A stretch of 64,000 bases of DNA from an uncultured Methanosarcinales archaeon (GTDB lineage: Archaea; Nanobdellota; Nanobdellia; Woesearchaeales; CAYMBN01). Location: NCBI GenBank assembly GCA_964388715.1, contig CAYMBN010000006.1:1-64000 (forward strand), read 5' to 3'. A program made the position numbers and the translations under genes. Shown one piece after another: positions 15,408-61,580 of the stretch. Each line of letters starts with the position of its first letter. Position 1 is the first letter of the stretch. Under the pieces are notes generated by a model. It was not told where the DNA came from. It worked only from the letters and a program-made list of their open reading frames with translations, and did not search any database.

Positions 15408-16274
15408 ATGGGGAAATATTTATTCACAAACTCACTAGGTAGCTTTGTATTTGATGAAAAGCTTAAACTAGTTGATAAAGGAGAAGAGAAAAAGCTTAGT
15501 AAGAAGTATAAGGATGCTATTAAAACAGATGATCCAAAAATTGTAAATGGGATCTTGAGATTATTTAAAGAGCAAGCTAAGAAGTTTTATGAGCCTAATT
15601 TAAAGTTTACAAAGCAGAAAGTAAAGGATTCTGTTAATTCTGATAATTTGGTTGTGCAGACAATTGATAATATTGAAGAAATTGATAAAGCTGCTAATTT
15701 ATTGGTTAAAAGGTTAAGAGAATGGTATGAACTTTATAATCCAGAGTTTTCCAAAGGTATTGCATCACATGATAAATTTGTTGAATTGATTCTTGAAAAG
15801 GTGAGTAAGAAGAAGAATTCAATGGGTGCTGAGTTAAGTAAAGAGGATTTAAAGCCAATAATGTCTTTAGCTAAGAAGATTAATGAGTTGTATAAGTTTA
15901 GAGAAGAACAGAAAAAATATCTTGAAAAGATTATGAAAAATAATTATAAGAATCTTACAGCTGTTGCAGGTGTTTTGATTGGAGCAAAATTGTTAGCGCA
16001 TGCTGGTTCATTGAAAAAATTAGTGTTATTTCCTGCTTCAACAATACAATTGTTAGGAGCTGAAAAGGCATTGTTTAGGCATATTAAAACAAAAGCAAAA
16101 TGTCCTAAATATGGATTAATTGTAAATCATCCTATTGTCTCTCAAGCCAAGAAGAAAGGTAAAGCTGCAAGAGCTGTAGCTGATAAAATTAGTATGGCTG
16201 TTAAAATTGATTATTTTAAAGGGAAGTTTATTGGTGATAAACTAAGGAAAGGTTTGGAGAAAAGGTTTGGATGA
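15408..16274 (+). CDS. nop5: Nop5 (Nop56/58) box C/D sRNP core protein
   Basis: RLREWY...PE, PASTIQLLGAEKALFRH, PKYG, GKAAR. Confidence 0.93.
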   Translation: MGKYLFTNSLGSFVFDEKLKLVDKGEEKKLSKKYKDAIKTDDPKIVNGILRLFKEQAKKFYEPNLKFTKQKVKDSVNSDNLVVQTIDNIEEIDKAANLLVKRLREWYELYNPEFSKGIASHDKFVELILEKVSKKKNSMGAELSKEDLKPIMSLAKKINELYKFREEQKKYLEKIMKNNYKNLTAVAGVLIGAKLLAHAGSLKKLVLFPASTIQLLGAEKALFRHIKTKAKCPKYGLIVNHPIVSQAKKKGKAARAVADKISMAVKIDYFKGKFIGDKLRKGLEKRFG

Positions 16275-17758
16275 AAACTGAACAAATCATCAAAAAGTTT
16301 GCTCTTGATAAGACAACTTGGACATTTAAAGGATTTCATGGTCTTCCATTTACATTTTATTATATTGGTTATGGGTCATTGAAGTGGTGTAAAAAGTTTT
16401 ATGGTGATCAATGTAAAAAGTCTATGTTCTTTGCAAGTAAAGATTATATAAGATGGTATTGGCCTGATGAAGATATGAGACGATTGAGAAAGTTACTGAT
16501 TAAAAATGTAAATAAAGATGATAATTATTTAAAAAAGATGAGAACAGATTGGGCAAAAAAGCTCAGAGAATTTAATAAAGTTTTAGAAAAGATAAGTAAA
16601 ACAGACTTAAGTAAACTTAATGATAAAGAATTGCTAGAGTTATATGATGAGTTTCTTGTTAAATATATGGAAGAGTTTGGCATTGTTATGACTGTTCAAG
16701 ATGCTTTTTCAATGTATTCTTCTGAGTTTTTAGAGCCTGCCTTTGTAGAAGTTTTGGAAAAACAAGATAAATTAGACAAATTTACTTATTATTATACTAA
16801 ATTACTTTCACCTGTTGAAGATTCATTTATTTCAATTGAAAAGAAGTCAAGGCTAAATATTTTGAAGGAAGTTGAGAAGAATGGTTTTGACTCAGATAAA
16901 GTAAAAAATATACTTAAAGAACATCAAAAAAAGTTTTTTTGGGTTAGAAATAACTATGCAAAACAGCCTGTTTTGGATGTTAAGTTTTTTGTGGATGAAA
17001 TAAAGAATATGATTAAAGAAGGTGTTAAGGCTGAGAAAGAATTGAAAAAGATGGATGATGAAATTAAAGAGATTGTTGAGGAAAAAAAGAAGATAATAAA
17101 GGAGCTTAAGTTAAGTAAAGAGTTTGTTAATTTGATTAAAATAACTGAAAATTTTAGTTATATTCAAGATGAAAGGAAAAAGTATGTTCTTATTGCAAAC
17201 CATTATCAAAGATTGTTTATGAAAGAGATTTCCAAAAGAAAGAAATTGCCTATTAAGATGGTTGAATATCTTGTTTATCCTGAAATAAAGCAAAGAATGT
17301 TTGACAAACAAAAGTTGAAGAAAAGGTATGATTCTTGTGTATGTATACAGGATGATTCTGGTTTTTATGTTTATGAAGGAGAAGAAGTTGATAAATTACA
17401 TGATAAATTGTTTGGTTCTGATAAAGATAAGAATATTACTGAATTAAAAGGTTTATGTGCTTCAAAAGGTAAAGCAAGAGGTACTGTTAAGATTGTCCAG
17501 AAAACACATGATTTAGTTAATTTCAAAGAAGGAGATATTTTGCTTTCTTCCATGACAAGGCCTGAGATGGTTGTTGCTATGAAAAAAGCAGCTGCAATTG
17601 TAACTGATGAAGGTGGAATCACTTCACATGCTGCGATTGTTTCACGAGAGTTGGGTAAACCATGCATAATTGGTACAAAGAAAGCAACAAGTGTGTTTAA
17701 GGATGGTGATATTGTTGAAGTTGATGCTGATAAAGGAGTTGTAAAGAAAATAAAATGA
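16271..17758 (+). CDS. helical domain + C-terminal PEP-utilising mobile (phospho-His swivel) domain protein
   Basis: TDEGGITSHAAIVSRELGKPCIIGT...VEVDADKG; no ATP-grasp or TIM-barrel domain. Confidence 0.88.
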   Translation: MKTEQIIKKFALDKTTWTFKGFHGLPFTFYYIGYGSLKWCKKFYGDQCKKSMFFASKDYIRWYWPDEDMRRLRKLLIKNVNKDDNYLKKMRTDWAKKLREFNKVLEKISKTDLSKLNDKELLELYDEFLVKYMEEFGIVMTVQDAFSMYSSEFLEPAFVEVLEKQDKLDKFTYYYTKLLSPVEDSFISIEKKSRLNILKEVEKNGFDSDKVKNILKEHQKKFFWVRNNYAKQPVLDVKFFVDEIKNMIKEGVKAEKELKKMDDEIKEIVEEKKKIIKELKLSKEFVNLIKITENFSYIQDERKKYVLIANHYQRLFMKEISKRKKLPIKMVEYLVYPEIKQRMFDKQKLKKRYDSCVCIQDDSGFYVYEGEEVDKLHDKLFGSDKDKNITELKGLCASKGKARGTVKIVQKTHDLVNFKEGDILLSSMTRPEMVVAMKKAAAIVTDEGGITSHAAIVSRELGKPCIIGTKKATSVFKDGDIVEVDADKGVVKKIK

Positions 17759-19038
17759 AAGCTGAAGAAGTTAAGGAAAAAATTAGAGAATTAACATGGG
17801 AAAAATGGCTTCAGAGACACTTTGATCCGTTAGTAACTTCATTTTTTACAGAAGGATTTTATGAAAAATCATTTGAAAAAATAGGAATTCCTAATATGAA
17901 AGGTAAAGCGTCATTATTTCAGGAAAGTGTTTGGTATGAAAGTAAAGAAGTATGGGCTCATGCTGTTGAACTGTTAGAAGTTTATTTAAAGAACCATACA
18001 ATGTTGGATGTATCAAATTTACTTGAAAAATTTTATGAACAAAAAAAGAAACATATTCAATATCTTGTTAAACAAAACGGAAATCCTATTGAGAATTTAA
18101 AGGAGATTTATGAAATTTTAAAATCATGTACAACATTCATATGGGTAGCACATGCATTAGAACAAGTTTTCATGAGAAGGCTAAAACAGGAAGTTCCAAA
18201 ATATGTTAAGAAAGATGTTGATAAATTTATAGGAGATGCAAGTTTTCCAAAGAAAAAGAATGTAAACATGTTAATGGAAGAAGCAATGCGAAAAGGTGAA
18301 GATCCAGAAAAGATTGTTAAAGATTATGGGTGGGTAAAAGTTCGTTGCACTTTTGAAGAACCTTTTAGTGTTGATGATATTAAAAAGTTAATAAAGGAAT
18401 TAAAGCCAACTAAAACAGTAAAAAAAGTAGATATACCTAAAGAACTTCAACCTTTATTTAATGATGTACAAGAGCTAGTATATTTTCGTACTGCAAGAAC
18501 AGATATTTTTTATGAACTTTTGTTTTTATCACGACCGATCTTTAAAAGAGTAGCTGAATTTTACAAAATACCATTTTCTGAATTTCCTTATTACACTGTT
18601 CAAAGTTTAATTAATGGAAAACCTAAAAAGTTTGGGAAAAAATATTCGTTTGCACAATATGAAGATAATCATTATTTTGGGGAAGAACCTATTTTGGAGG
18701 ATGAAGTAGTTAAAGAAGTTGATTATGTAAAAGGAACTGTTGCATATAAAGGAATAATAAAAGGTATTGTAAAAATTGTTAGAATAGAAACAGAATTAGA
18801 TAAAGTAAAACAAGGAGATATCTTAGTGACACAAATGACTTTCCCTTCTTTTATCACTGCTATGCATAAGGCATCTGCATTTGTGACAGATGAAGGTGGA
18901 ATTACGTGTCACGCTGCAATTGTTTCACGGGAAATGCATAAACCATGCATAATTGGTACAAAAATTGGTACAAAGGTTTTTAAAGATGGGGATTTGGTTG
19001 AAGTTGATGCTGATAAAGGTATTGTGAGGAAATTATGA
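17755..19038 (+). CDS. helical domain + C-terminal PEP-utilising mobile (phospho-His swivel) domain protein
   Basis: TDEGGITCHAAIVSREMHKPCIIGT...VEVDADKG. Confidence 0.88.
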   Translation: MKAEEVKEKIRELTWEKWLQRHFDPLVTSFFTEGFYEKSFEKIGIPNMKGKASLFQESVWYESKEVWAHAVELLEVYLKNHTMLDVSNLLEKFYEQKKKHIQYLVKQNGNPIENLKEIYEILKSCTTFIWVAHALEQVFMRRLKQEVPKYVKKDVDKFIGDASFPKKKNVNMLMEEAMRKGEDPEKIVKDYGWVKVRCTFEEPFSVDDIKKLIKELKPTKTVKKVDIPKELQPLFNDVQELVYFRTARTDIFYELLFLSRPIFKRVAEFYKIPFSEFPYYTVQSLINGKPKKFGKKYSFAQYEDNHYFGEEPILEDEVVKEVDYVKGTVAYKGIIKGIVKIVRIETELDKVKQGDILVTQMTFPSFITAMHKASAFVTDEGGITCHAAIVSREMHKPCIIGTKIGTKVFKDGDLVEVDADKGIVRKL

Positions 19039-19730: not shown

Positions 19731-19760
19731 ATGAAACAAACAATAGATTGTTGTTGTTGA
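19731..19760 (+). CDS. putative cysteine-sensing leader peptide MKQTIDCCC
   Basis: ATG AAA CAA ACA ATA GAT TGT TGT TGT TGA, at leaderless spacing from the TATA and directly upstream of tRNA-Cys/cysK/cysS. Confidence 0.7.
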   Translation: MKQTIDCCC

Positions 19761-19789
19761 ATTCTTTCATTGTTTTAGTTTTAACTCTA

Positions 19790-19914
19790 GGGAGTGTTGC
19801 CAAGCGGCTAAATTTTCAAGGCTAGGTTTTCAAGGCTAGGGCGGTCGGCTGCAACCCGACTAATCAAGGGTTCGAGACGTTTATTCTAAAGACGCGAAAT
19901 TCCCTTCACTCCCT
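19790..19914 (+). tRNA. tRNA-Cys(GCA) with two non-canonical introns (19812-19839 in the D arm, 19877-19900 in the T loop)
   Basis: Acceptor GGGAGTG/CACTCCC + U73; anticodon arm GTCGG-CTGCAAC-CCGAC; T stem AAGGG/CCCTT; removing both BHB-bounded inserts restores a canonical cloverleaf. Confidence 0.92.
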
Positions 19915-19982
19915 TCTTAACAATGAAAGGTCAAAAAAGCAAAACTTAATAAATAATCTAAACTAAAATAGAGGTAATCAAA

Positions 19983-29603: not shown

Positions 29604-30548
29604 TTATTTCTTAAAAGTTGTTACTGGTCGTGATTGTGTGAGGTATATTTTTCTTCCTTCAACAGCCCATTCTATGTCTTGTGGAAATTTATAGTGTTTT
29701 TCTACTTTTTTACCAAGTTCTGCTAATTCTGTTATTTCATGGTCAGTTAAAACTTGTTTTTCTGGATCAGGGATGTTTTTTCTTGTGTTTTCTCCTGTTT
29801 CTTCATCTCTGAAAAGGCCCCATTCTTGTTCATTAACTGTTTTTTCTTTTATGTTAAGAGAATGTTTGTTAACAATGTATAAGTCTGGGTTGATGCTTCC
29901 TGAGACTACTGATTCACCTAATCCAAATGCTCCTTCAATTATGATTTCATCTTCACTGTTTGTAACTGGGTTAACAGAAAATAGAACTCCTGCTTTGTCT
30001 GAATTAACCATTTTTTGTATAACAACTGCAATGAAAACTTCTTCGTGTTTAAAGTTGTTTTTTTCTCTGTAATAGATTGCACGAGCAGTAAATAATGATG
30101 CCCAACATTTTTGAGTAGCTTCAACAACGTTTTTTGCACCTTTTACATTAAGGAATGTTGCTTGTTGTCCTGCAAAACTTGCATCTGGTAAGTCTTCTGC
30201 TGTTGCAGATGAACGTACTGCTACAAAAGTGTCAATCAAATCGTAGTTTGTGATTGTATCTTGTTTAATCTCTTCTGGCATTTCTGCGCTTGTGATAATA
30301 TGTTGAATTTCATTAGAAGCTTTTTGCAGTGCTTCAGTATCTTCAACATCAAGATCAGCTAATTTGTCAAATATTTTTTTTTGTATTCCTGTTCTTTCTA
30401 AGAAAAGTTTGTAAGCGTCTGCTGTAACAACAAAACCTTCTGGAATTGGAAAGTCTGCGTTGAATAGTTCACCAAGGTTAGCTCCTTTTCCACCTACAAT
30501 TGGAATATCTTTCTTGCTTAAATCTTTAAACCACATTATATTTTGCAT
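29604..30548 (-). CDS. stand-alone PEP synthase/PPDK N-terminal ATP-grasp domain protein
   Basis: VGGKGANLGEL, AVRSSATAEDLPDASFAGQ, GLGESVVSG, DIEWA, QSRPVT then stop; lacks the His and PEP/pyruvate domains. Confidence 0.92.
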   Translation of the reverse strand: MQNIMWFKDLSKKDIPIVGGKGANLGELFNADFPIPEGFVVTADAYKLFLERTGIQKKIFDKLADLDVEDTEALQKASNEIQHIITSAEMPEEIKQDTITNYDLIDTFVAVRSSATAEDLPDASFAGQQATFLNVKGAKNVVEATQKCWASLFTARAIYYREKNNFKHEEVFIAVVIQKMVNSDKAGVLFSVNPVTNSEDEIIIEGAFGLGESVVSGSINPDLYIVNKHSLNIKEKTVNEQEWGLFRDEETGENTRKNIPDPEKQVLTDHEITELAELGKKVEKHYKFPQDIEWAVEGRKIYLTQSRPVTTFKK

Positions 30549-30583
30549 GATTATCACCTTTATATCTTATTTGGGATTTGTTT

Positions 30584-33571
30584 TTATATTTTTCTAATAA
30601 TTCCTTTGTTTGCATCGACTTCTACTAAATCATTATCTTTGAAGACTTTAGTGGCTATTTTTGTGCCGATGATGCATGGTTTACCTAATTCTCGGCTTAC
30701 GATTGCTGCGTGGCAAGTTATCCCACCCATGTCTGTAACTATTGCAGCTGATTTTTTCATTGCAACAACAATTTCAGGATCTGTCATACGTGAAACTAAT
30801 ATATCTCCTGGGTTCATTTTGTGTAAATCCTTAGGATGATTAATAATCTTTACTGTTCCTTTGGCATAACCACCTTTTGCGCAATAACCTTTGATTTCAT
30901 TTACATTGAGATTAACTTTTTCTTCTCTTATAAGATTAATTTCTTTTACAAATTCTCTAGCTTTATCTCCAACAAAAACTTTAGTTTGACCATTTTCAAA
31001 GTATATGAAACTGTATTTGTAACGTTCTTCTAGTTCCTCTTTGTTAAACTTTTTTCCTAAAAGAAATGGTTTGATTTCCCAAGGTAAGGTAAATCTTAAT
31101 AGATTTAAGTTAATCTTTAAACGTTTTGCAATTTCTTTTAATAAACCTTCAGCAGCATAAAATCCAAAAAATAATGCGTCTTTGCTTGATGCTTTAACAT
31201 CAATTGATTCTTCTGCAAGTTGAATTAATTTTTTGTGTTTTTCATCAAGATTTAGTTTTCTAAGAATCTCTTTTTTTTGTTTTTTGATTGTCTCTGGTTC
31301 TTCTAATAGTTTTTTTAGTTCATTTTGTAAAATCTGTTTATCTTGAGTAAGTAAATCTTTCATTGATTTAATAAAATGTTCATCATTCCATGCTGGACCA
31401 GTAAGTCCGTAAGGTAACCATTTATAGTTATCAATGTGCTTTCTTAGTTTTTGTTTGATTTGTTGTGACGTTATATTTTTTTCTGACTTTAATTCAATTG
31501 CAAGTTGTAAAAATTCTTCTTTTTCAAGACGAGGAAAATTCTTTTTAAGTGGTGTTGAGAGAATAGCAAAAGTAGCACTAGGTTCTAGATTGAGTTTTTG
31601 TTTTTTTATTTGAGAATTTAAATAGTTAAGCATGTATTTAGTAAATACTTCGTAATATGTTTCCATTATCCAAATTGGTGCTCTTCTTTTGTGAGAAGAA
31701 TTATGTAATAATTCAAATTGTTTGTATAAATCCGCTAGTTCTTGATTAGTTTTATTAGTGAAATCTGTTTTTAGTAATTCTTGGCTAAAATCAAGCAATT
31801 GTTTTCCAAATTTTTCAATATCTTTGTTGACCTGATTTAATTTATCTGGGTTGTTTAAAATGATTTTTAAGTAATCTTCACCTAATTTTTTCCATTCTTT
31901 TTGTACAAAAACATAATTACCTTTTCCTTTAATGAATTCTGTACCATCAACTTTAAAATTTAATAGGCCTAATGATTCCATTTCTGAAGTAATACTTCTA
32001 AGTGGAGAAGCAGCAAATAAGTAATGTGTCATTTCAGCTTCCTCAACAACAAACCAGTTATCTTTTACTTTAATTTTTTTTACTGTTCCATTTGTTGCTT
32101 CTACTTCTACTTCTTCTCCATCTTTTAACACGTGTGTTGCAATTTTTGTACCTATTACACAGGGTGTTTGTAATTCGCGGCTAACTATGGCTGCATGACA
32201 TGTAATTCCACCCATATCTGTTATAATTGCTGCTGCTTTTTCCATTGCAGGCACTAAATTAGGATTTGTTGAATGTGAAACCATTATATCCCCTTTATTC
32301 ATTTTAAAGATTTCTGATGTGTGGTTTATTACCTTAACAGTACCTTTTGCATAACCTTGATAAGCACAACTTCCTTTTAACTCAGAAACATTTTCAATTT
32401 TTTTAGCATCCTTGTACAAATCATTAAACTTTTTTTCAGCTTCTTCGCCAACTAAAAAAGTTTCTTTTCCATTAAGGTCAATCATATATAATCCCTTGTC
32501 AAATCTTTGTTTTAAAATTTCAGAATCATATTCACCTGTTTCAAGTGCTTTAATTAATTCTTCTGGTAGAAAGTATCTTACTTCATCTAAAGTTGAGTTG
32601 AGTCTTTTTGCAACCTCCTCTAAAAAAGGAGTTATAACATAGCAAGCAAAATAAGTTACATCTTTTCTGTAACCTTTAATAAATACTGTTTCTGATAATG
32701 CCTCCATTATCAATTGATTATACTTGTTAAAATCTAATTTTTTTATTAAAGCTTCTCTTGTTTTAGATAAAGATTTTTCGTATTCTAGCTTTGCTTTTAT
32801 TGTTTCAGCGGTTTCTTCTTCTAACATTTGTTTGAGTTTAACTAAAAAGTAATCAATATCCCAAGCGGGTCCTTCATACATGTAAGGTAACCAAAGATAT
32901 TCTTTATAATGTTCAAATATAGCATTATAAATTTCAGGTTTTTTAGATTTTAATAATTTAAGATCTTTTTGCTTAATAATTTCACAAACTTCTTTATCTT
33001 GATAAATTTTAATAAATAATTGGTTCAATTCCTTTTCTTCTTTTTTCAAATAACTTGATTCTGTAGGAGTTGATAATAAAACAAAAGTTTTAGTGGGATT
33101 AATATCTAACCCTTTTTCTTTAATTCTTTTATCAATAATTTGTTTTGCAAAAGTTGTTAAGTATTCATGTTCAAATTCAAGCATGTTTCCAAAAAAACCG
33201 TATCCATGTACAGGTGCATAGTGATGATAATATTTTTTATATAAATCAGCTAATTCATTGTTTGTTAATTTACTAAAATTCACTCGTCTTAAACTATCAC
33301 AAAACTCTTTCCAATCATTAGAATATTGTTTTAATTCTTTGTTTATTTTTTTATACCATTTAGGATCTGACTTGAGTTTATTAAATATTTCTAAAGCAAC
33401 TTTACCAAATCTTTCTTTTGGGTAAATTATTGTAATTCTTCTATGTTTATAAAAAACTGCACAATTTAATCTTAGTTTATCTTCCCAAATAGTTGAATAC
33501 CTAAGATAACCCACTGTTTGCATAGGAAAAATCCCAAATATTTTTTCGAATAAAAACCATTCTTGTTTCAT
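30584..33571 (-). CDS. tandem double (helical domain + phospho-His swivel domain) protein
   Basis: Two TDMGGITCHAAIVSREL motifs (mid-protein and C-terminus); both helical halves share T..LLSTP/AILSTP and Y.WLPY...GPAW. Confidence 0.9.
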   Translation of the reverse strand: MKQEWFLFEKIFGIFPMQTVGYLRYSTIWEDKLRLNCAVFYKHRRITIIYPKERFGKVALEIFNKLKSDPKWYKKINKELKQYSNDWKEFCDSLRRVNFSKLTNNELADLYKKYYHHYAPVHGYGFFGNMLEFEHEYLTTFAKQIIDKRIKEKGLDINPTKTFVLLSTPTESSYLKKEEKELNQLFIKIYQDKEVCEIIKQKDLKLLKSKKPEIYNAIFEHYKEYLWLPYMYEGPAWDIDYFLVKLKQMLEEETAETIKAKLEYEKSLSKTREALIKKLDFNKYNQLIMEALSETVFIKGYRKDVTYFACYVITPFLEEVAKRLNSTLDEVRYFLPEELIKALETGEYDSEILKQRFDKGLYMIDLNGKETFLVGEEAEKKFNDLYKDAKKIENVSELKGSCAYQGYAKGTVKVINHTSEIFKMNKGDIMVSHSTNPNLVPAMEKAAAIITDMGGITCHAAIVSRELQTPCVIGTKIATHVLKDGEEVEVEATNGTVKKIKVKDNWFVVEEAEMTHYLFAASPLRSITSEMESLGLLNFKVDGTEFIKGKGNYVFVQKEWKKLGEDYLKIILNNPDKLNQVNKDIEKFGKQLLDFSQELLKTDFTNKTNQELADLYKQFELLHNSSHKRRAPIWIMETYYEVFTKYMLNYLNSQIKKQKLNLEPSATFAILSTPLKKNFPRLEKEEFLQLAIELKSEKNITSQQIKQKLRKHIDNYKWLPYGLTGPAWNDEHFIKSMKDLLTQDKQILQNELKKLLEEPETIKKQKKEILRKLNLDEKHKKLIQLAEESIDVKASSKDALFFGFYAAEGLLKEIAKRLKINLNLLRFTLPWEIKPFLLGKKFNKEELEERYKYSFIYFENGQTKVFVGDKAREFVKEINLIREEKVNLNVNEIKGYCAKGGYAKGTVKIINHPKDLHKMNPGDILVSRMTDPEIVVAMKKSAAIVTDMGGITCHAAIVSRELGKPCIIGTKIATKVFKDNDLVEVDANKGIIRKI

Positions 33572-47062: not shown

Positions 47063-47166
47063 GGGAACATAGCTCAGACTGGGAGAGCACTACGCTGAAG
47101 ACGTAGGTGTCCTGGGAAGTTAATTGGAATACAATTAACTCAGGAATTCAAATCCCAGTGTTCCCA
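47063..47166 (+). tRNA. tRNA-Phe(GAA) with a 30-nt intron at position 53/54 (47117-47146)
   Basis: GGGAACA/TGTTCCC acceptor, GCTC/GAGC D stem, CTACG-CTGAAGA-CGTAG, CTGGG/CCCAG T stem; TATA at 47030-47037. Confidence 0.95.
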
Positions 47167-56718: not shown

Positions 56719-58440
56719 ATGTTAAGAACTCATACTTGTGGTGAACTTACCAAAAAGAATATTGGTAAAAAAGTTGAATTATGTGGTTGGTTAGATAGTA
56801 AAAGAGAACATGGGAATGTTACTTTTGTTAATTTAAGGGACCGATATGGTGTAACACAGGTTGTTTTTAATGAAAGTGTTCGTGACCTTAAAAATGAGTT
56901 TGTTCTAAGAGTTAAAGGTACTGTTAAAAAAAGGCCCGAATCTAATAAAAAATTAAAAACAGGTGAAATTGAAGTTGAAGTTAATAGTTATGACATTCTT
57001 AATAAGTGTGATGTTTTACCTCTTGATTTGAGTGGACAAGTTGAATCTACAGAAGAAACAAGAATGAAGTATAGGTATCTTGATTTGAGAAGACCAGAAA
57101 TACAAAAGTTTTTTGTGATAAGGGATAAAGCAATACTTAGTGCAATGAATTTCATGAATAATAATAATTTTATTCATCTTGAAACACCTTTATTAGTTAA
57201 GGCAACACCAGAAGGAGCTAGAGATTATATTGTTCCAAGTAGAGTTAATAAAGGAAAATTTTATGCATTGCCTCAAAGTCCACAGTTGTATAAACAAATT
57301 CTTATGGTTGCTGGTTTTGATCGTTATTATCAAATTGCTCGTTGTTTAAGAGATGAAGATTTAAGATCTGATAGACAACCAGAACATACACAAATTGATA
57401 TTGAAATGAGTTTTATTGAAGCAGAAGATTTATATAAATTAGTTGAAGGTTTAATGAAAGCTATATTTAAAGAGGGAATTGGTTTTGATGTTAAAGTTCC
57501 ATTTAAGAGATTTACTTATGATGAAGCAATGAATAGATTTGGTTCTGACAAGCCCGATATAAGATTTGGTTTGGAGCTTGTTGATGTTTCCGATATAATG
57601 AAAAAAAGTGAATTTGGAATTTTTAAATCAGTGATTGAGTCTGGTGGAAATGTTAAATGTATTAATGCAAAAGGTTGTGGAAAATTTTCAAGGAAAGAAG
57701 TTGATGAACTTGAAAAAGTTGCTAAAACATACCATGCAAAAGGTTTGGTTAGAATTAAGATGATTGATAAGTTAGAAGGAACAGTTGTGAAGTTTTTTAG
57801 TGAGAAAGTACAAAAAGAATTAATTAAAAAAACTGAGGCAAAAAATGGAGATTTGTTACTGTTAATAGCAGATAATTTTAAGACTTGTTCAGAAGCTCTT
57901 GGACAAGTGAGAATATTTTTAAGAGATAAACTTAATCTGATTAAGAAAGAAGAGTTTTCATTTTGCTGGGTTGATAATTTTCCATTATTTGCTTGGAATG
58001 AAGAAGAAAAAAGATGGGAACCAGAACATCATATGTTTACAATGCCACAAAAAGAATTTATTAAAGATTTTGAAAAAAGACCTGGTAATGTAAAAGGTGT
58101 TTTATGGGATTTAACATTAAATGGAATTGAACTTGGCTCTGGTTCAATACGTGTTTCTGATCCAGTATTACAAGAGAGAATAATGAATTTTATTGGACTT
58201 CCTAAAAAAGAAGCTCATAAAAAGTTTGGTTTCTTGCTTGATGCTTATAAGTATGGTGGACCTGTACATGGAGGAATTGGTCTTGGTTTTGATAGAATGA
58301 TTGCATTAATGTGTGGTTTAACTGATATAAGAGAAATCATTTTGTTCCCTAAAAATAAGGATGCGGCATGTTTAATGGATGATTCTCCTGGTGAAGTTGA
58401 TAGAAAACAGTTAGATGAAGTTGGAATAAAATTAAAGTGA
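56719..58440 (+). CDS. aspS: aspartyl-tRNA synthetase, bacterial type (with GAD insertion)
   Basis: MLRTHTCGEL, YRYLDLRR, TPEGARDY, LPQSPQ, RDEDLR.DRQPE, GGP.HGGIGLG.DR; 573 aa. Confidence 0.96.
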   Translation: MLRTHTCGELTKKNIGKKVELCGWLDSKREHGNVTFVNLRDRYGVTQVVFNESVRDLKNEFVLRVKGTVKKRPESNKKLKTGEIEVEVNSYDILNKCDVLPLDLSGQVESTEETRMKYRYLDLRRPEIQKFFVIRDKAILSAMNFMNNNNFIHLETPLLVKATPEGARDYIVPSRVNKGKFYALPQSPQLYKQILMVAGFDRYYQIARCLRDEDLRSDRQPEHTQIDIEMSFIEAEDLYKLVEGLMKAIFKEGIGFDVKVPFKRFTYDEAMNRFGSDKPDIRFGLELVDVSDIMKKSEFGIFKSVIESGGNVKCINAKGCGKFSRKEVDELEKVAKTYHAKGLVRIKMIDKLEGTVVKFFSEKVQKELIKKTEAKNGDLLLLIADNFKTCSEALGQVRIFLRDKLNLIKKEEFSFCWVDNFPLFAWNEEEKRWEPEHHMFTMPQKEFIKDFEKRPGNVKGVLWDLTLNGIELGSGSIRVSDPVLQERIMNFIGLPKKEAHKKFGFLLDAYKYGGPVHGGIGLGFDRMIALMCGLTDIREIILFPKNKDAACLMDDSPGEVDRKQLDEVGIKLK

Positions 58441-59484
58441 TTTTCCTTTCTTGATTTTTTCCCTTAACCTTTCCATAAATTTTTGCATATAGTAAAGATT
58501 ATGGTAAGATTTTAAGATGTATGCATTTGGTTCGTTAATTTTTGTTAAGTAACGGATGTATGCTCTGCTGTAGTTTTTACAAACAAAGCAGTTGCAGTTT
58601 GAGTCAATTGGTTTTTTATCATTTTGGAAGGCTTTGTTTGTGATTTTAAGAATCCCTTTACTTGTTAACATGAAATTGTGTCTTGCAACTTGTGTTGGAT
58701 AAACAGAGTCAAAACAATCAATACCTTGTTTTACTGCTTGAATAATATCATCAGGGTGACCAATACCCATTGTGTAACGTAATTTATTTTCTGGTAATAA
58801 AGAAGTTGTTTTCATTGAGTCATATGTCTTTTTTTGTGGTTCACCTATTGCTAAACCACCAAGTGCGTAGCCGTCAAAGTCTAGTGATGTTATTTGTTGG
58901 ATGGATTTTTTTCTGAGGTCTTTATGGAATCCTCCTTGGCAGATTCCAAAAAGTAGTTGTTTCTTGTTTTTATGGAATTGTTTACAGAGTTTAGCCCATT
59001 CATAAGTTTTGTTTAATGAGTAAAGTACTTGTGATCTGTTTTGGTTTGGTAGTGGCATTAAGTCAAGAACCATTGCAATATCACTTGCTATTGTGTTTTG
59101 GTTTTGCATACATTCTTTTGGAGTTAATAAATGATGTGAACCATCGAAAGGACTTTTGAAATGAATGCCTTTATCTGTTATCTTTTGACAGAAATCTCTT
59201 ATTACTTGGAAACCGCCTGAGTCAGTGAAGATTATGTCTTTGTAGTTCATGAATTTGTGAAGTCCACCATGTTTTTTTATTAGTTGATTTCCTGGTTTTA
59301 ATGAAAGAAGAAGAGAGTTTGCTATGATTGCTTTTGCGCCGATTGTATTAAGTTGTTCTGATAGAACATGTCTTGGAGCTGCTTTTGTTGCAACTGGCAT
59401 AAAAAAAGGAGTTTCTATCTTCTTGTTGTTTACTTTGAATATTCCTGTACGTGCTTTACCTAAGTTGTGAGTGATTTTTAGCAT
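58432..59484 (-). CDS. tgt: tRNA-guanine transglycosylase, bacterial (queuosine) type
   Basis: TP.FMPVAT, TDSGGFQV, F.SP.DGS, QGG, GGLAIGE, MGIG, FDSVYPT, CxCxxC..HNL; no archaeal C-terminal PUA extension. Confidence 0.9.
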   Translation of the reverse strand: MLKITHNLGKARTGIFKVNNKKIETPFFMPVATKAAPRHVLSEQLNTIGAKAIIANSLLLSLKPGNQLIKKHGGLHKFMNYKDIIFTDSGGFQVIRDFCQKITDKGIHFKSPFDGSHHLLTPKECMQNQNTIASDIAMVLDLMPLPNQNRSQVLYSLNKTYEWAKLCKQFHKNKKQLLFGICQGGFHKDLRKKSIQQITSLDFDGYALGGLAIGEPQKKTYDSMKTTSLLPENKLRYTMGIGHPDDIIQAVKQGIDCFDSVYPTQVARHNFMLTSKGILKITNKAFQNDKKPIDSNCNCFVCKNYSRAYIRYLTKINEPNAYILKSYHNLYYMQKFMERLREKIKKGKSL

Positions 59485-59489
59485 AGAAA

Positions 59490-59936
59490 TTATACCTCAT
59501 CTAGGACAACCAGTGTTTGTGTTCTATCAACACCATCTATATTACGGAGGGTCCTTGTAATAAAATTATTTAATTCTGATATGTTTGTTGTTCTTAGTTT
59601 AATAATGATATCTGTTTCACCTGTTACCATATCAACTGATTCAACATAAGAATTTTTCTTTATTTTAAATGCAATATCTTTTTGTTCTAGCTTTTTACCT
59701 GATTTTAAGGTATAATCAACTGTTACAAAAATGTATGCACAGATTGTTTTACCAAGTTTTTCATGATCAATATTAATTGTAAAGTTTTTTATGATACCTT
59801 GCTGAGTTAATCGTTTAATTCTGTTGTGTACTGTTGTAATTGGAAGGGAAACTTTTTTAGAAATTTGACTAGTAGTAAGTTTTGCGTTATTTTTTAATAC
59901 GTCTAAAATTCTTAAATCTTTTCCATCTATTTTCAT
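59490..59936 (-). CDS. Lrp/AsnC-family transcriptional regulator
   Basis: D..D..IL..L, TTVHNRIKRL..QGII, VTGETD, RAM domain. Confidence 0.93.
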   Translation of the reverse strand: MKIDGKDLRILDVLKNNAKLTTSQISKKVSLPITTVHNRIKRLTQQGIIKNFTINIDHEKLGKTICAYIFVTVDYTLKSGKKLEQKDIAFKIKKNSYVESVDMVTGETDIIIKLRTTNISELNNFITRTLRNIDGVDRTQTLVVLDEV

Positions 59937-60043
59937 ATAATGGAATAATATTCCATATTTTATAAATTTTTTGGTATTTTTTTGTATATATTTTCATTTT
60001 AAAAAAGATAGTTTTAAATATAATGGGTGAATTCTGAAAACCA

Positions 60044-60145
60044 ATGAAAAAATCAAAAAGAAAATTAAAACCATTGTTCAGGCTAAAGAGAAAAGCTTGC
60101 CTGAAAGCACTTTTTCTAGATCAAAATCTTTTGAATAATAATTGA
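60044..60145 (+). CDS. putative asparagine-sensing leader peptide (33 aa, ends NLLNNN)
   Basis: MKKSKRKLKPLFRLKRKACLKALFLDQNLLNNN-TGA; TTTAAATA at 60013-60020 about 24 nt upstream; precedes asnS. Confidence 0.55.
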   Translation: MKKSKRKLKPLFRLKRKACLKALFLDQNLLNNN

Positions 60146-60242
60146 GATGTCTGTTTTTATCAGATCAATGTATTTTTTCAATAAAGTTTTAGAACCATCA
60201 AGCAGAGCTTGAGGTTTCTAAACGGTTTCGACCCTGTCGAAA
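60141..60242 (+). promoter_or_regulatory. structured leader between the uORF and asnS (hairpin + T6 tract, two further hairpins)
   Basis: ATTGA..TCTG/CAGA-TCAAT then T6 (60173-60178); TTTAGAA..TCAAGC/GCTTGA..TTCTAAA (60188-60222); TTTCGAC/GTCGAAA (60226-60242). Confidence 0.55.
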
Positions 60243-60287
60243 ACTTTATATAATATAAAACTAAATAAAATCATAATTGGTGAAAAA

Positions 60288-61580
60288 ATGAAATTTGTTA
60301 GTATACAAGAAGCAATGGATAAAGGAAAAGGCAAAGTCTCTATAAGAGGTTGGGTTTATAGAGAAAGAAAAAGTAGCAAATATGCCTTTATTATACTTAG
60401 AGATAGCTCTCACACTATTCAATGTGTGTTTGATGCAAAGAAATTTGGAAAAAGGTGGAAAGATATTGATAAAATACTTATTGAGTCTGCTATGGAAATA
60501 AGTGGACAGATAAAAAAGGATGACAGAGCACCAACAGGTTATGAAATTCACGCAGAAGATTTTAGAGTAGAACATTATGCAGAACCATTCCCAATTGTAA
60601 AAGATCAAAGTCCTGAGTTTTTAGCTGATAAAAGACATTTGTGGCTAAGAAGTCAGAAAATGATTGCTATTATGAAAATACGATCAACTATTTTTGGTGC
60701 AATCCATGATTATTTTAGAAAACAAGGTTTTTATGAATTTCAGAGTCCTATTTTTCAGCCAACCCAATCAGAAGGTGGTTCTACTGTTTTTACTGTACCT
60801 TATTTTGGTGATAAAGTTTATCTAGCACAAACATGGCAATTACAAGCTGAAACAGCTATCTTTGCATTAGAAAAGATTTATTGTATTGCTCCTAGTTTTA
60901 GAGCAGAGAAATCAAAAACTTCACGTCATTTAACAGAATATTGGCATGCTGAAATGGAAATGCCTTGGTGTAAGTTTGAGGATTTGCAAGATCATGGTGA
61001 AGCATTGGTTAAACATGTTGTTAAAGACGTTCTTAAGAAACATAAAAAAGATTTGAAAACATTGAAAAGAGATATTAAAAAGTTAGAACCTGTTGTTAAA
61101 AAACCATTTTTAAGAATAACTTATGATAAAGCATTGAAGATTCTTAAAGATAAATGCAAGATGAAGGTTGAATGGGGTAAAGATTTAAGAACAATTGAAG
61201 AAGAAAAATTAACTAAATTGTATGATGTGCCAATAATTGTAACTGATTATCCAAAAGTTGTTAAAGCGTTTTATATGAAAGAAACTCCTGGGAAATCTAA
61301 GTGTGTGCAAGGGTTTGATTTTTTAGCACCAGAAGGATATGGTGAAATAATTGGTGGATCACAAAGAGAAGAAGATATTGAAAAAATTAAGAAAAGGTTA
61401 AAAGAGCAAGGTGAAGATCCTAAAGATTATGAATTCTATCTTGATACTCGTCGATATGGGTCAGTGCCACATGGTGGATTTGGTTTTGGAGTAGAAAGAG
61501 TCATTGCATGGGTGTGTGGTCTTGATACAATTAAAGATGCAATAGCATTTCCAAGGACAATGGTTAGGTATAAGCCTTAA
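60288..61580 (+). CDS. asnS: asparaginyl-tRNA synthetase
   Basis: RHLWLR, YLAQT.QL, SFRAEKSKTSRHLTEYW, GEIIGGSQRE, RRYGSVPHGGFG.GVER. Confidence 0.93.
   Translation: MKFVSIQEAMDKGKGKVSIRGWVYRERKSSKYAFIILRDSSHTIQCVFDAKKFGKRWKDIDKILIESAMEISGQIKKDDRAPTGYEIHAEDFRVEHYAEPFPIVKDQSPEFLADKRHLWLRSQKMIAIMKIRSTIFGAIHDYFRKQGFYEFQSPIFQPTQSEGGSTVFTVPYFGDKVYLAQTWQLQAETAIFALEKIYCIAPSFRAEKSKTSRHLTEYWHAEMEMPWCKFEDLQDHGEALVKHVVKDVLKKHKKDLKTLKRDIKKLEPVVKKPFLRITYDKALKILKDKCKMKVEWGKDLRTIEEEKLTKLYDVPIIVTDYPKVVKAFYMKETPGKSKCVQGFDFLAPEGYGEIIGGSQREEDIEKIKKRLKEQGEDPKDYEFYLDTRRYGSVPHGGFGFGVERVIAWVCGLDTIKDAIAFPRTMVRYKP

Follow-up and report, generated by a model that had tools for sequence, protein, structure and literature searches.

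A candidate asparagine-sensing leader open reading frame behind an AsnC-linked distal promoter of asnS in a DPANN archaeon

How does a DPANN archaeon control the gene for its asparaginyl-tRNA synthetase, asnS, and does a 33-codon open reading frame (ORF) that precedes this gene and ends in three asparagine codons take part in the control? The question is raised by positions 1 to 64,000 of contig CAYMBN010000006.1 (hereafter the window, meaning this whole 64-kb stretch at its full length; 30.4% G+C), in which asnS and a gene for an Lrp/AsnC-family regulator diverge from a gap of 351 nucleotides (nt), with the ORF inside the gap. An earlier note, made from the letters alone, had proposed that Asn-tRNA-dependent stalling on this ORF governs termination before asnS. 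Its observation proved to be real and partly above chance, and the mechanism is partly supported. Our reading is that a basal proximal promoter is overlaid by an AsnC-linked distal promoter carrying an Asn-sensing leader ORF; the mechanism is derived from the layout of the locus, and we hold this reading tentatively, at a little short of an even chance. The ORF may encode a leader peptide that senses asparagine, a kind for which no archaeal example has yet been described. Four new facts are the strongest: a conserved asn gene cluster in relatives, the inheritance of the distal promoter, a geometry common to the Asn ORF and a cysteine counterpart in the window, and a modest signal of terminal Asn codons in relatives, which includes a unit of short ORF, tRNA-Asn and asnB.

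The asnS side of the gap holds two predicted promoters in tandem, with the ORF behind the distal one.

60013..60020, plus strand: TATA box TTTAAATA of the predicted distal promoter P1, 23 nt before the ATG at 60044
60044..60145, plus strand: 33-codon ORF of leaderless geometry, MKKSKRKLKPLFRLKRKACLKALFLDQNLLNNN, with AAT-AAT-AAT at 60134-60142 and the TGA stop at 60143-60145
60245..60252, plus strand: TATA box TTTATATA of the predicted proximal promoter P2, with a 35-nt gap of the Shine-Dalgarno type to the asnS ATG
60279..60283, plus strand: Shine-Dalgarno sequence GGTGA of asnS
60288..61580, plus strand: asnS, asparagine--tRNA ligase of 430 residues (NCBIfam NF003037, 497.8 bits against a cut-off of 414; Pfam tRNA-synt_2 and OB fold)

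Promoters in the window fall into two classes, namely leaderless genes, with 22-25 nt from the end of the TATA box to the ATG, and Shine-Dalgarno genes, with 33-35 nt and a GGTG motif. The Asn ORF, with a gap of 23 nt (the earlier note had given about 24), falls into the leaderless class, and asnS, with 35 nt and GGTGA, into the other. By this spacing, the ORF is laid out as a translated leaderless ORF would be.

The distribution of Asn codons within the ORF is uneven, since the first 27 positions lack them and the last six contain four, just as the earlier note had described it, down to the AAT-AAT-AAT-TGA end. Under a first-order Markov model of the local 351 nt, the probability that the last three codons are all Asn is 2.3e-4, so that this ending lies above chance, and the probability of three consecutive Asn codons anywhere in the ORF is 3.1e-3. 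The caveat that AAT is common in AT-rich DNA stands for the motif and falls for its place: AATAATAAT occurs 13 times on the two strands of the window against 7.8 expected, and the improbable thing about it is its position, not its existence. Among the 1007 ATG ORFs of at least 5 residues in the six frames of the window, nine end in three identical residues, one of them in NNN-stop and one in CCC-stop (19731-19760). Furthermore, the window contains 151 TATA-like motifs on both strands, 32 of which are followed by an ATG at 21-26 nt. Sorted by us against the ORF list, these 32 comprise the starts of long genes (about half), about ten sites within genes and a single tRNA start, among others; tRNA starts aside, the only intergenic ORFs shorter than 40 residues among them are the NNN-stop ORF before asnS and the CCC-stop ORF before tRNA-Cys, cysK and cysS.

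The latter ORF, MKQTIDCCC-stop at 19731-19760, repeats the design of the Asn ORF: a TATA box, a gap of 23 nt, an ATG, three cognate codons and TGA, the last two of which the earlier note had already matched. It is followed by a tRNA gene and then by cysK and cysS.

about 19790-19913, plus strand: unannotated tRNA-Cys(GCA), with inserts in the D loop and the T loop and, as judged by eye, U at the discriminator position

This tRNA was missed by Rfam and, on the raw sequence, by ARAGORN, which calls tRNA-Cys(gca) in 1536 of 2016 variants from which both inserts were removed. An 11-bp leader-trailer helix could join 19764-19774, which begins 4 nt past the ORF stop, to 19919-19929, and a helix of that length appeared in 30 of 2000 shuffles. 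The position of tRNA-Cys between the CCC-stop ORF and cysK-cysS, together with this helix and the lack of a T run 3' of the tRNA, suggests that the short ORF, tRNA-Cys, cysK and cysS form one unit. As further examples of such leaders, valS and aspS were set aside, with only 51 and 13 nt upstream, and so was glyS, upstream of which reading by eye found no ORF with a Gly run.

On the other side of the gap lies the regulator gene.

59490..59936, minus strand: Lrp/AsnC-family regulator gene, 148 residues (Pfam AsnC_trans_reg, PF01037, 6.9e-15; HTH_AsnC-type, PF13404, 4.8e-10)
59940..59956, no strand: palindrome ATGGAATAATATTCCAT, core TGGAA-N5-TTCCA, candidate AsnC/Lrp operator between the lrp TATA box and the lrp start
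59962..59969, minus strand: TATA box of lrp/asnC, TTTATAAA on the minus strand, with a 22-nt gap to the ATG at 59936

The Pfam matches confirm the divergent Lrp/AsnC gene of the earlier note; the LysM, AsnC and Lrp models of NCBIfam also match the protein, all below their cut-offs. The gene is probably leaderless.

We compared this arrangement with relatives of the host. From its sequence, the host is a Woesearchaeota-like DPANN archaeon: the AsnRS of the window is 66-79% identical to proteins named Woesearchaeota or Nanoarchaeota (the closest matches are P0001, 100% identical, and P0002, 79%), and other gene products of the window include fibrillarin, Nop56, Mre11, HerA and RFC. A scan of GTDB genomes with an AsnRS alignment yielded 80 loci (66-72% identity), cited here by L numbers. 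In 21 of the 80, an Lrp homologue lies upstream of asnS and divergent from it, and 11 of these 21 carry an asparagine synthase between the two genes. The synthase is AsnB in nine of the 11 (Pfam Asn_synthase and GATase in the four tested, the others 65-87% identical to L034 AsnB); the remaining two are asnA in L016 and an AsnA-like class II enzyme in L013. By gene order and homology, a cluster of asnC, asparagine synthase and asnS is thus conserved in the relatives, and the window genome has no synthase at the locus; none was found elsewhere in the window. A remnant of a deleted asnB or asnA was sought in the gap with tblastn, using 18 neighbour proteins of relatives against 59900-60320, which returned noise (best E 0.073).

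The distal promoter is part of this inheritance. Positions 59925-60025 align with clear homology to L034, L059 and L073 (closest Lrp, 55% identity), and the aligned parts include the lrp start, the TGGAA-N5-TTCCA palindrome, the lrp TATA box, a T run and a second TATA box, which is the one at 60013-60020 of the window and, in L034 and L059, stands before asnB. The homology ends immediately past this second TATA box. The distal promoter therefore appears to be inherited and AsnC-linked, and the sequence beyond it to be new. P1 is, by this alignment, a homologue of the asnB promoter of the relatives, and for that reason it is probably responsive to asparagine through AsnC. A TATA box near asnS is kept in relatives as well. 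Two predicted promoters stand in tandem before asnS, an AsnC-linked distal one and a basal proximal one. The suggestion in the earlier note of an inducible upstream promoter on top of a basal one is strengthened, since the region of 60013 aligns with an asnB promoter that has an AsnC box and the promoter at 60245 is of the normal Shine-Dalgarno type.

The palindrome at 59940-59956 is the sole match to TGGAA-N4-7-TTCCA in the window, which is not significant alone (a match occurred in 45 of 100 shuffles). Its position beside the lrp start is kept in L034, L059 and L073, and TGGAACA.ATGTTCCA is kept together with both TATA boxes in the more distant L006, L007, L013, L021, L024, L028, L031 and L040; across the window and the 11 loci that were read, TGGAA-N5/6-TTCCA adjoins the lrp start. 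The locus therefore has the features expected of a divergent AsnC/Lrp promoter, namely regulator domains, a conserved divergent linkage to asn genes and a conserved palindrome in the control region as candidate operator. In Escherichia coli, asnC and asnA form a divergent pair in which AsnC activates asnA and asparagine relieves the activation. Here too, an AsnC/Lrp gene diverges from an asparagine gene across a common control region with a palindrome, and relatives of the window organism carry asnA or asnB in the equivalent place. By this analogy, the cluster of asnC, asparagine synthase and asnS is an archaeal counterpart of the E. coli pair. Unlike in E. coli, the adjacent target in the window is asnS, no synthase is present in the window, and the operator is predicted from sequence; the E. 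coli pair, for its part, lacks the leader-ORF layer proposed here. Independently of the ORF, the conserved cluster and its operator are a useful annotation result.

To look for leader ORFs in the relatives, the promoter rule of the window (TATA pattern, 21-26 nt, ATG, at most 45 codons, intergenic) was applied to the 80 loci and returned 23 short ORFs, five of which precede asn genes.

L016: ORF ending in LFLDN-stop, downstream gene asnA
L055: ORF ending in AISNN-stop (AAT-AAT-TGA), 34 nt before the downstream gene, asnA (Pfam AsnA, 2e-96)
L079: ORF ending in RLNRL-stop, downstream gene asnB
L045: ORF ending in FPNRY-stop, downstream gene asnS
L071: ORF ending in YSIIN-stop, downstream gene asnS

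All five carry Asn within the last three codons, against four of the 14 other ORFs of at least 4 residues (one-sided Fisher p = 0.011). Counted by codon, Asn makes up 6/15 of the terminal codons before asn genes and 4/42 of those in the other ORFs (p = 0.015), and 0/82 of the other positions in the five ORFs. The 14 controls include one ORF, in L003, that really belongs to the 5' end of a tRNA gene; without it, the comparison becomes 5/5 against 4/13, with p about 0.015 by hand calculation. From so small a sample the signal is modest; it comes from an independent data set to which a rule taken from the window was applied.

One of the five ORFs belongs to a unit that parallels the Cys unit of the window. 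In L079 (577-740), a TATA box and the leaderless short ORF MTRTKYTQKRLNRL-stop are followed after 12 nt by tRNA-Asn(GUU) at 634-721 and by asnB, with asnS 2.2 kb downstream. This tRNA has a 12-nt intron and was identified by Rfam (tRNA, 62.8 bits) and by ARAGORN with introns allowed; ARAGORN without introns miscalls it as Val(aac). The two cluster tRNAs, window tRNA-Cys and L079 tRNA-Asn, have leaders of 58-59 nt that open with an ATG at the predicted start. Ordinary tRNAs, namely window tRNA-Phe at 47063 and the tRNA-Leu and tRNA-Thr of L003, start without a leader at the predicted transcription start. The tRNA-Phe (GAA, by eye; 47063-47166, plus strand) has an insert in the region of the T arm, a TATA gap of 23 nt and a T6 directly after it; it was missed by ARAGORN and scores 44.4 bits with Rfam.

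Further observations were made on leaders in the relatives. In L055 (1296-1400), the short ORF is MAIKTAFQSECKLAIAISNN-stop, no TATA box lies between it and asnA, and asnS follows asnA. Two loci, L034 (1201-1257) and L059 (1155-1214), have long leaders before asnB in which a short ORF or a nucleotide motif is conserved, with the ends EADYRNFK-stop and ESDYRNFN-stop, respectively, and the DNA CTGATTATCGGAATTT in common. Short ORFs ending in three identical residues in the intergenic DNA of the relatives (10 of 1131) had no visible link to the downstream genes, which are unannotated, and a neighbour ORF in L073 bears no relation to the leaders.

How could the distal transcript sense asparagine? 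Past the ORF stop, the leader contains two further features.

60157..60178, plus strand: U-rich stretch past the stop, with T5 at 60157-60161 and T6 at 60173-60178, possible oligo-T termination sites (a putative role)
60181..60249, plus strand: Y-shaped fold of 69 nt, with a 7-bp closing stem (60181-60187/60243-60249), a long hairpin (60188-60222) and a second hairpin (60226-60242)

In the layered reading that we prefer, the proximal promoter (TATA 60245) would supply basal asnS expression, and the distal promoter (TATA 60013) would fire in answer to asparagine through the AsnC-like protein. The distal transcript would start at or beside the ATG at 60044 and would be read without a leader, from its first base, into a 33-residue peptide. 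The terminal AAT codons would sense charged tRNA-Asn, and scarcity would lengthen the dwell of the ribosome. This dwell time could alter the fate of the transcript over the next 15-100 nt, which hold U5 (60157-60161), U6 (60173-60178) and the Y-shaped element, and would set the share of distal transcription that gets beyond the U tracts and the Y-shaped element and reaches asnS. If the ribosome paused on the final codons, its footprint would extend about 15 nt past them, close behind a polymerase located on the U tracts; a ribosome stalled likewise at the Cys locus would cover the 5' arm of the leader-trailer helix. We infer both the stalling and the direction and molecular step of its effect from this geometry. 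Archaeal termination, as the accessible parts of three sources have it (PMC8716108, PMC7515710, PMC2253867), works through U tracts and aCPSF1/FttA, not hairpins, so that the hairpin logic of bacterial attenuators need not apply.

A series of results weighs against this mechanism. The asnS gene has a complete promoter and Shine-Dalgarno sequence of its own, so the distal transcript is not needed for its expression. After the TATA box at 60013, the leader has no detectable homologue in relatives. Most of them have only about 40-150 nt upstream of asnS, TATA box included, which makes the long leader lineage-specific. An Asn run (an ATG ORF with NNN, or ending in NN, within 350 nt upstream of asnS) was found in one of 75 loci and is absent from the other 74. 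The lone case, L049, with MEAIKICLDLNSNPNSNN-stop, overlaps a TATA-like stretch, its AT-rich end being equally readable as the asnS TATA box, so that conservation of an Asn-run ORF upstream of asnS, which the earlier note had looked to, fails. The terminal Asn signal in relatives consists of one or two codons, not three, and rests on five ORFs. When the leader (60021-60287) was compared at the nucleotide level with the 80 loci and the window, no match was significant (best E 0.013 over 15 nt with blastn-short, 8.8 with nhmmer), and alignment with the leaders of L016 and L055 was unconvincing.

The putative termination parts fare no better. The earlier note had the stop codon in a hairpin arm followed by T6, acting as a terminator; hairpin and T6 are both where it placed them, and neither exceeds background. 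The hairpin with T6 (60125-60185, hairpin 60131-60181) folds at -8.1 kcal/mol (z = -0.44), with 55 of 200 shuffles as stable, and runs of at least six T occur 54 times in 60.7 kb of coding sense strand (0.89 per kb), which makes the T6 unremarkable. A terminator scan gave 60226-60242 as the sole terminator-like match, followed by only T3. No antiterminator alternative appeared: with 60119-60152 or 60044-60160 forced to be unpaired, the downstream fold and the pairing of the Shine-Dalgarno region were unchanged. Positions 60172-60180 can pair over 9 bp with the start region of asnS (60281-60289), but 182 of 2000 shuffles do as well, so that the pairing lacks significance; it also lies outside the stall footprint. 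The idea that the U6 tract masks the start of asnS at long range was rejected with it. Finally, no leader-peptide attenuator in archaea was among the matches listed by our full-text literature searches, which sets a low prior. In the accessible text of a review of archaeal transcription-translation coupling (PMC8116511), the words attenuation, leader peptide and polarity are absent, and in that of PMC2965389 the word archaea occurs in the reference list only.

Many of these results would be expected if control were exerted by AsnC alone, with P1 a relic of the ancestral asnC/asnB layout, the ORF incidental to transcripts that start at an ATG, and the Asn triplet arising by chance from AT-rich DNA. 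The homology of promoter and operator is solid, the leader past the TATA box is not conserved, and most asnB promoters of the relatives have short leaders and no short ORF. Similarly, no part of the putative terminator exceeds chance, AATAATAAT is no rarity in the window, and runs of at least three identical residues occur 127 times among its 1010 short ATG ORFs, six of them of Asn. However, control by AsnC alone requires two coincidences in 64 kb, as both short intergenic ORFs of leaderless geometry end in three codons cognate to the downstream aminoacyl-tRNA synthetase, and it leaves the terminal Asn enrichment in the relatives unexplained. We regard it as possible, though we would sooner bet against it than on it.

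The layered reading also has to be weighed against the structure of the leader. Of the stems listed in the earlier note, all lie where it had put them, and those within 60188-60242 exceed chance, whereas the inverted repeat TTCAGGC/GCCTGAA at 60077-60105 is no better than shuffles (z = -0.84, 38 of 200). The fold of the whole ORF region is ordinary (z = -0.65). The stems at 60184-60246 reach -21.4 kcal/mol (z = -4.29, none of 200 shuffles), and the complete Y-shaped fold reaches -22.9 kcal/mol (z = -4.72, none of 200 shuffles), with the minus strand equally stable (z = -4.26). Its arms are near-perfect palindromes with loops of 3 nt (AGA, CCU), and its 3' end overlaps the B recognition element (BRE) and TATA box of P2. 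No other copy of the fold was found in the window or the 80 loci. A search of 59900-60350 with Rfam gave no T-box or tRNA match at E <= 10 and only junk matches with E >= 1.2, and neither Rfam nor ARAGORN found a tRNA-Asn or anything tRNA-like in the leader; Rfam thus excludes both T-boxes and tRNA-like elements. A C/D-box-like match on the minus strand was dismissed (17.2 bits against a cut-off of 60).

Such a structure could also serve an independent gene. The TATA box at 60013 would then drive a separate transcript of about 115-205 nt, encoding a small basic peptide or acting as a small RNA, that stops at the U tracts or at the Y-shaped element and leaves asnS unaffected in cis. This view is in keeping with the complete promoter, with the leaderless ATG and with the U5/U6 tracts, which follow the stop at 12-33 nt; the very stable structure (z = -4.7) could shield the 3' end, and asnS can rely on a promoter of its own. 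In vitro, as the accessible text of PMC2253867 has it, archaeal RNA polymerase is terminated by oligo-T tracts of 5-6 T, and tRNA-Phe in the window is directly followed by T6. Against this, the Asn ORF peptide matches no Pfam family and has no homologue at E <= 0.001 among 1.84 billion representative proteins, a weak argument as short peptides are poorly represented there; with zero matches in that search, a conserved small protein was rejected. The region matches no Rfam family and is not conserved in relatives, and a separate gene leaves unexplained why the Asn codons stand only at the end of the ORF. We consider it unlikely.

Least probable of all, and in our view very unlikely, is a regulator centred not on the ORF but on the Y-shaped element at 60181-60249, be it a DNA operator over the BRE and TATA box of P2 or an RNA bound by AsnRS or tRNA as in thrS operators or T-boxes: the element is the only part of the leader clearly more stable than shuffles, has two near-perfectly palindromic arms and adjoins the proximal TATA box, but it has no Rfam match, T-box and tRNA included, its 3-nt loops do not resemble an anticodon loop, the two palindromes are no more frequent in the window than expected (which also removed them as repeated operator sites), and no such element was found upstream of asnS in the relatives inspected.

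Should the layered reading hold, which known systems does it resemble? Charged-tRNA sensing by a leader peptide is a textbook mechanism in bacteria, where trpL and hisL belong to ribosome-mediated transcription attenuators and pheM, upstream of pheST, provides an example with an aminoacyl-tRNA synthetase. With the trp, his and pheST attenuators, the Asn locus has in common a leader peptide whose regulatory codon run is cognate to the regulated gene, and pheM-pheST illustrates that a synthetase operon can be under leader-peptide control. Unlike in these attenuators, a terminator/antiterminator hairpin pair does not rise above chance here.

The closest analogue appears to be the set of polycysteine leaderless short ORFs of mycobacteria, or Cys ribulon, in which, as the accessible text of Canestrari et al. 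(10.1101/834739) describes it, a stalled ribosome opens a duplex that hides the Shine-Dalgarno sequence of the next gene, and membership is defined by at least two consecutive cognate codons. Three consecutive Asn codons are present in the window ORF and two in the ORF before asnA in L055. As far as that text goes, the two systems also agree in having a short ORF, here predicted to be leaderless and first on the transcript, with at least two consecutive codons of one amino acid, upstream of genes for the metabolism of that amino acid, and in having several loci per genome (here Cys and Asn) with apparently fast, independent evolution at each. On the same footing they differ in that the Cys ribulon is bacterial and the present host an archaeon with TATA/BRE promoters; no Shine-Dalgarno-hiding duplex within reach of the ribosome was found here; and the downstream gene is an aminoacyl-tRNA synthetase gene with its own promoter, the cognate codons standing directly before TGA.

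A broader proposal would be that DPANN archaea use ribosome-sensed leader ORFs, that is, leaderless short ORFs with cognate last codons at the head of amino-acid-supply units. The Cys unit and the L079 unit would be its models, and the Asn ORF of the window a form reduced after the loss of tRNA-Asn and asnB; we rate this as doubtful, if conceivable. If it is true, no leader peptide that senses an amino acid would have been reported from Archaea before these, and one sensor would couple a tRNA, a biosynthetic enzyme and a synthetase. Because archaea couple transcription to translation but terminate differently, a working Asn or Cys leader ORF would exemplify a readout of ribosome position without the hairpin terminators of bacteria. 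It would also indicate how synthetases are tuned in DPANN cells, whose genomes are reduced and which probably rely on importing amino acids.

Other genes of the window deserve mention. The AspRS and TGT genes occupy 56719-58440 and 58432-59484. The AspRS (573 residues) of this archaeon is of the bacterial type with a GAD domain, and the TGT (350 residues) scores higher with the bacterial queuine-type Tgt model (397.8 bits) than with archaeosine TgtA (159.4 bits); the order aspS, tgt, asnS is kept in L014. Additionally, pieces resembling phosphoenolpyruvate synthase or pyruvate phosphate dikinase, split or duplicated, lie in neighbouring genes at 16271-19038, 29604-30557 and 30584-33571; they comprise split N-terminal and mobile-domain parts, and one protein of 995 residues has two copies of the mobile domain.

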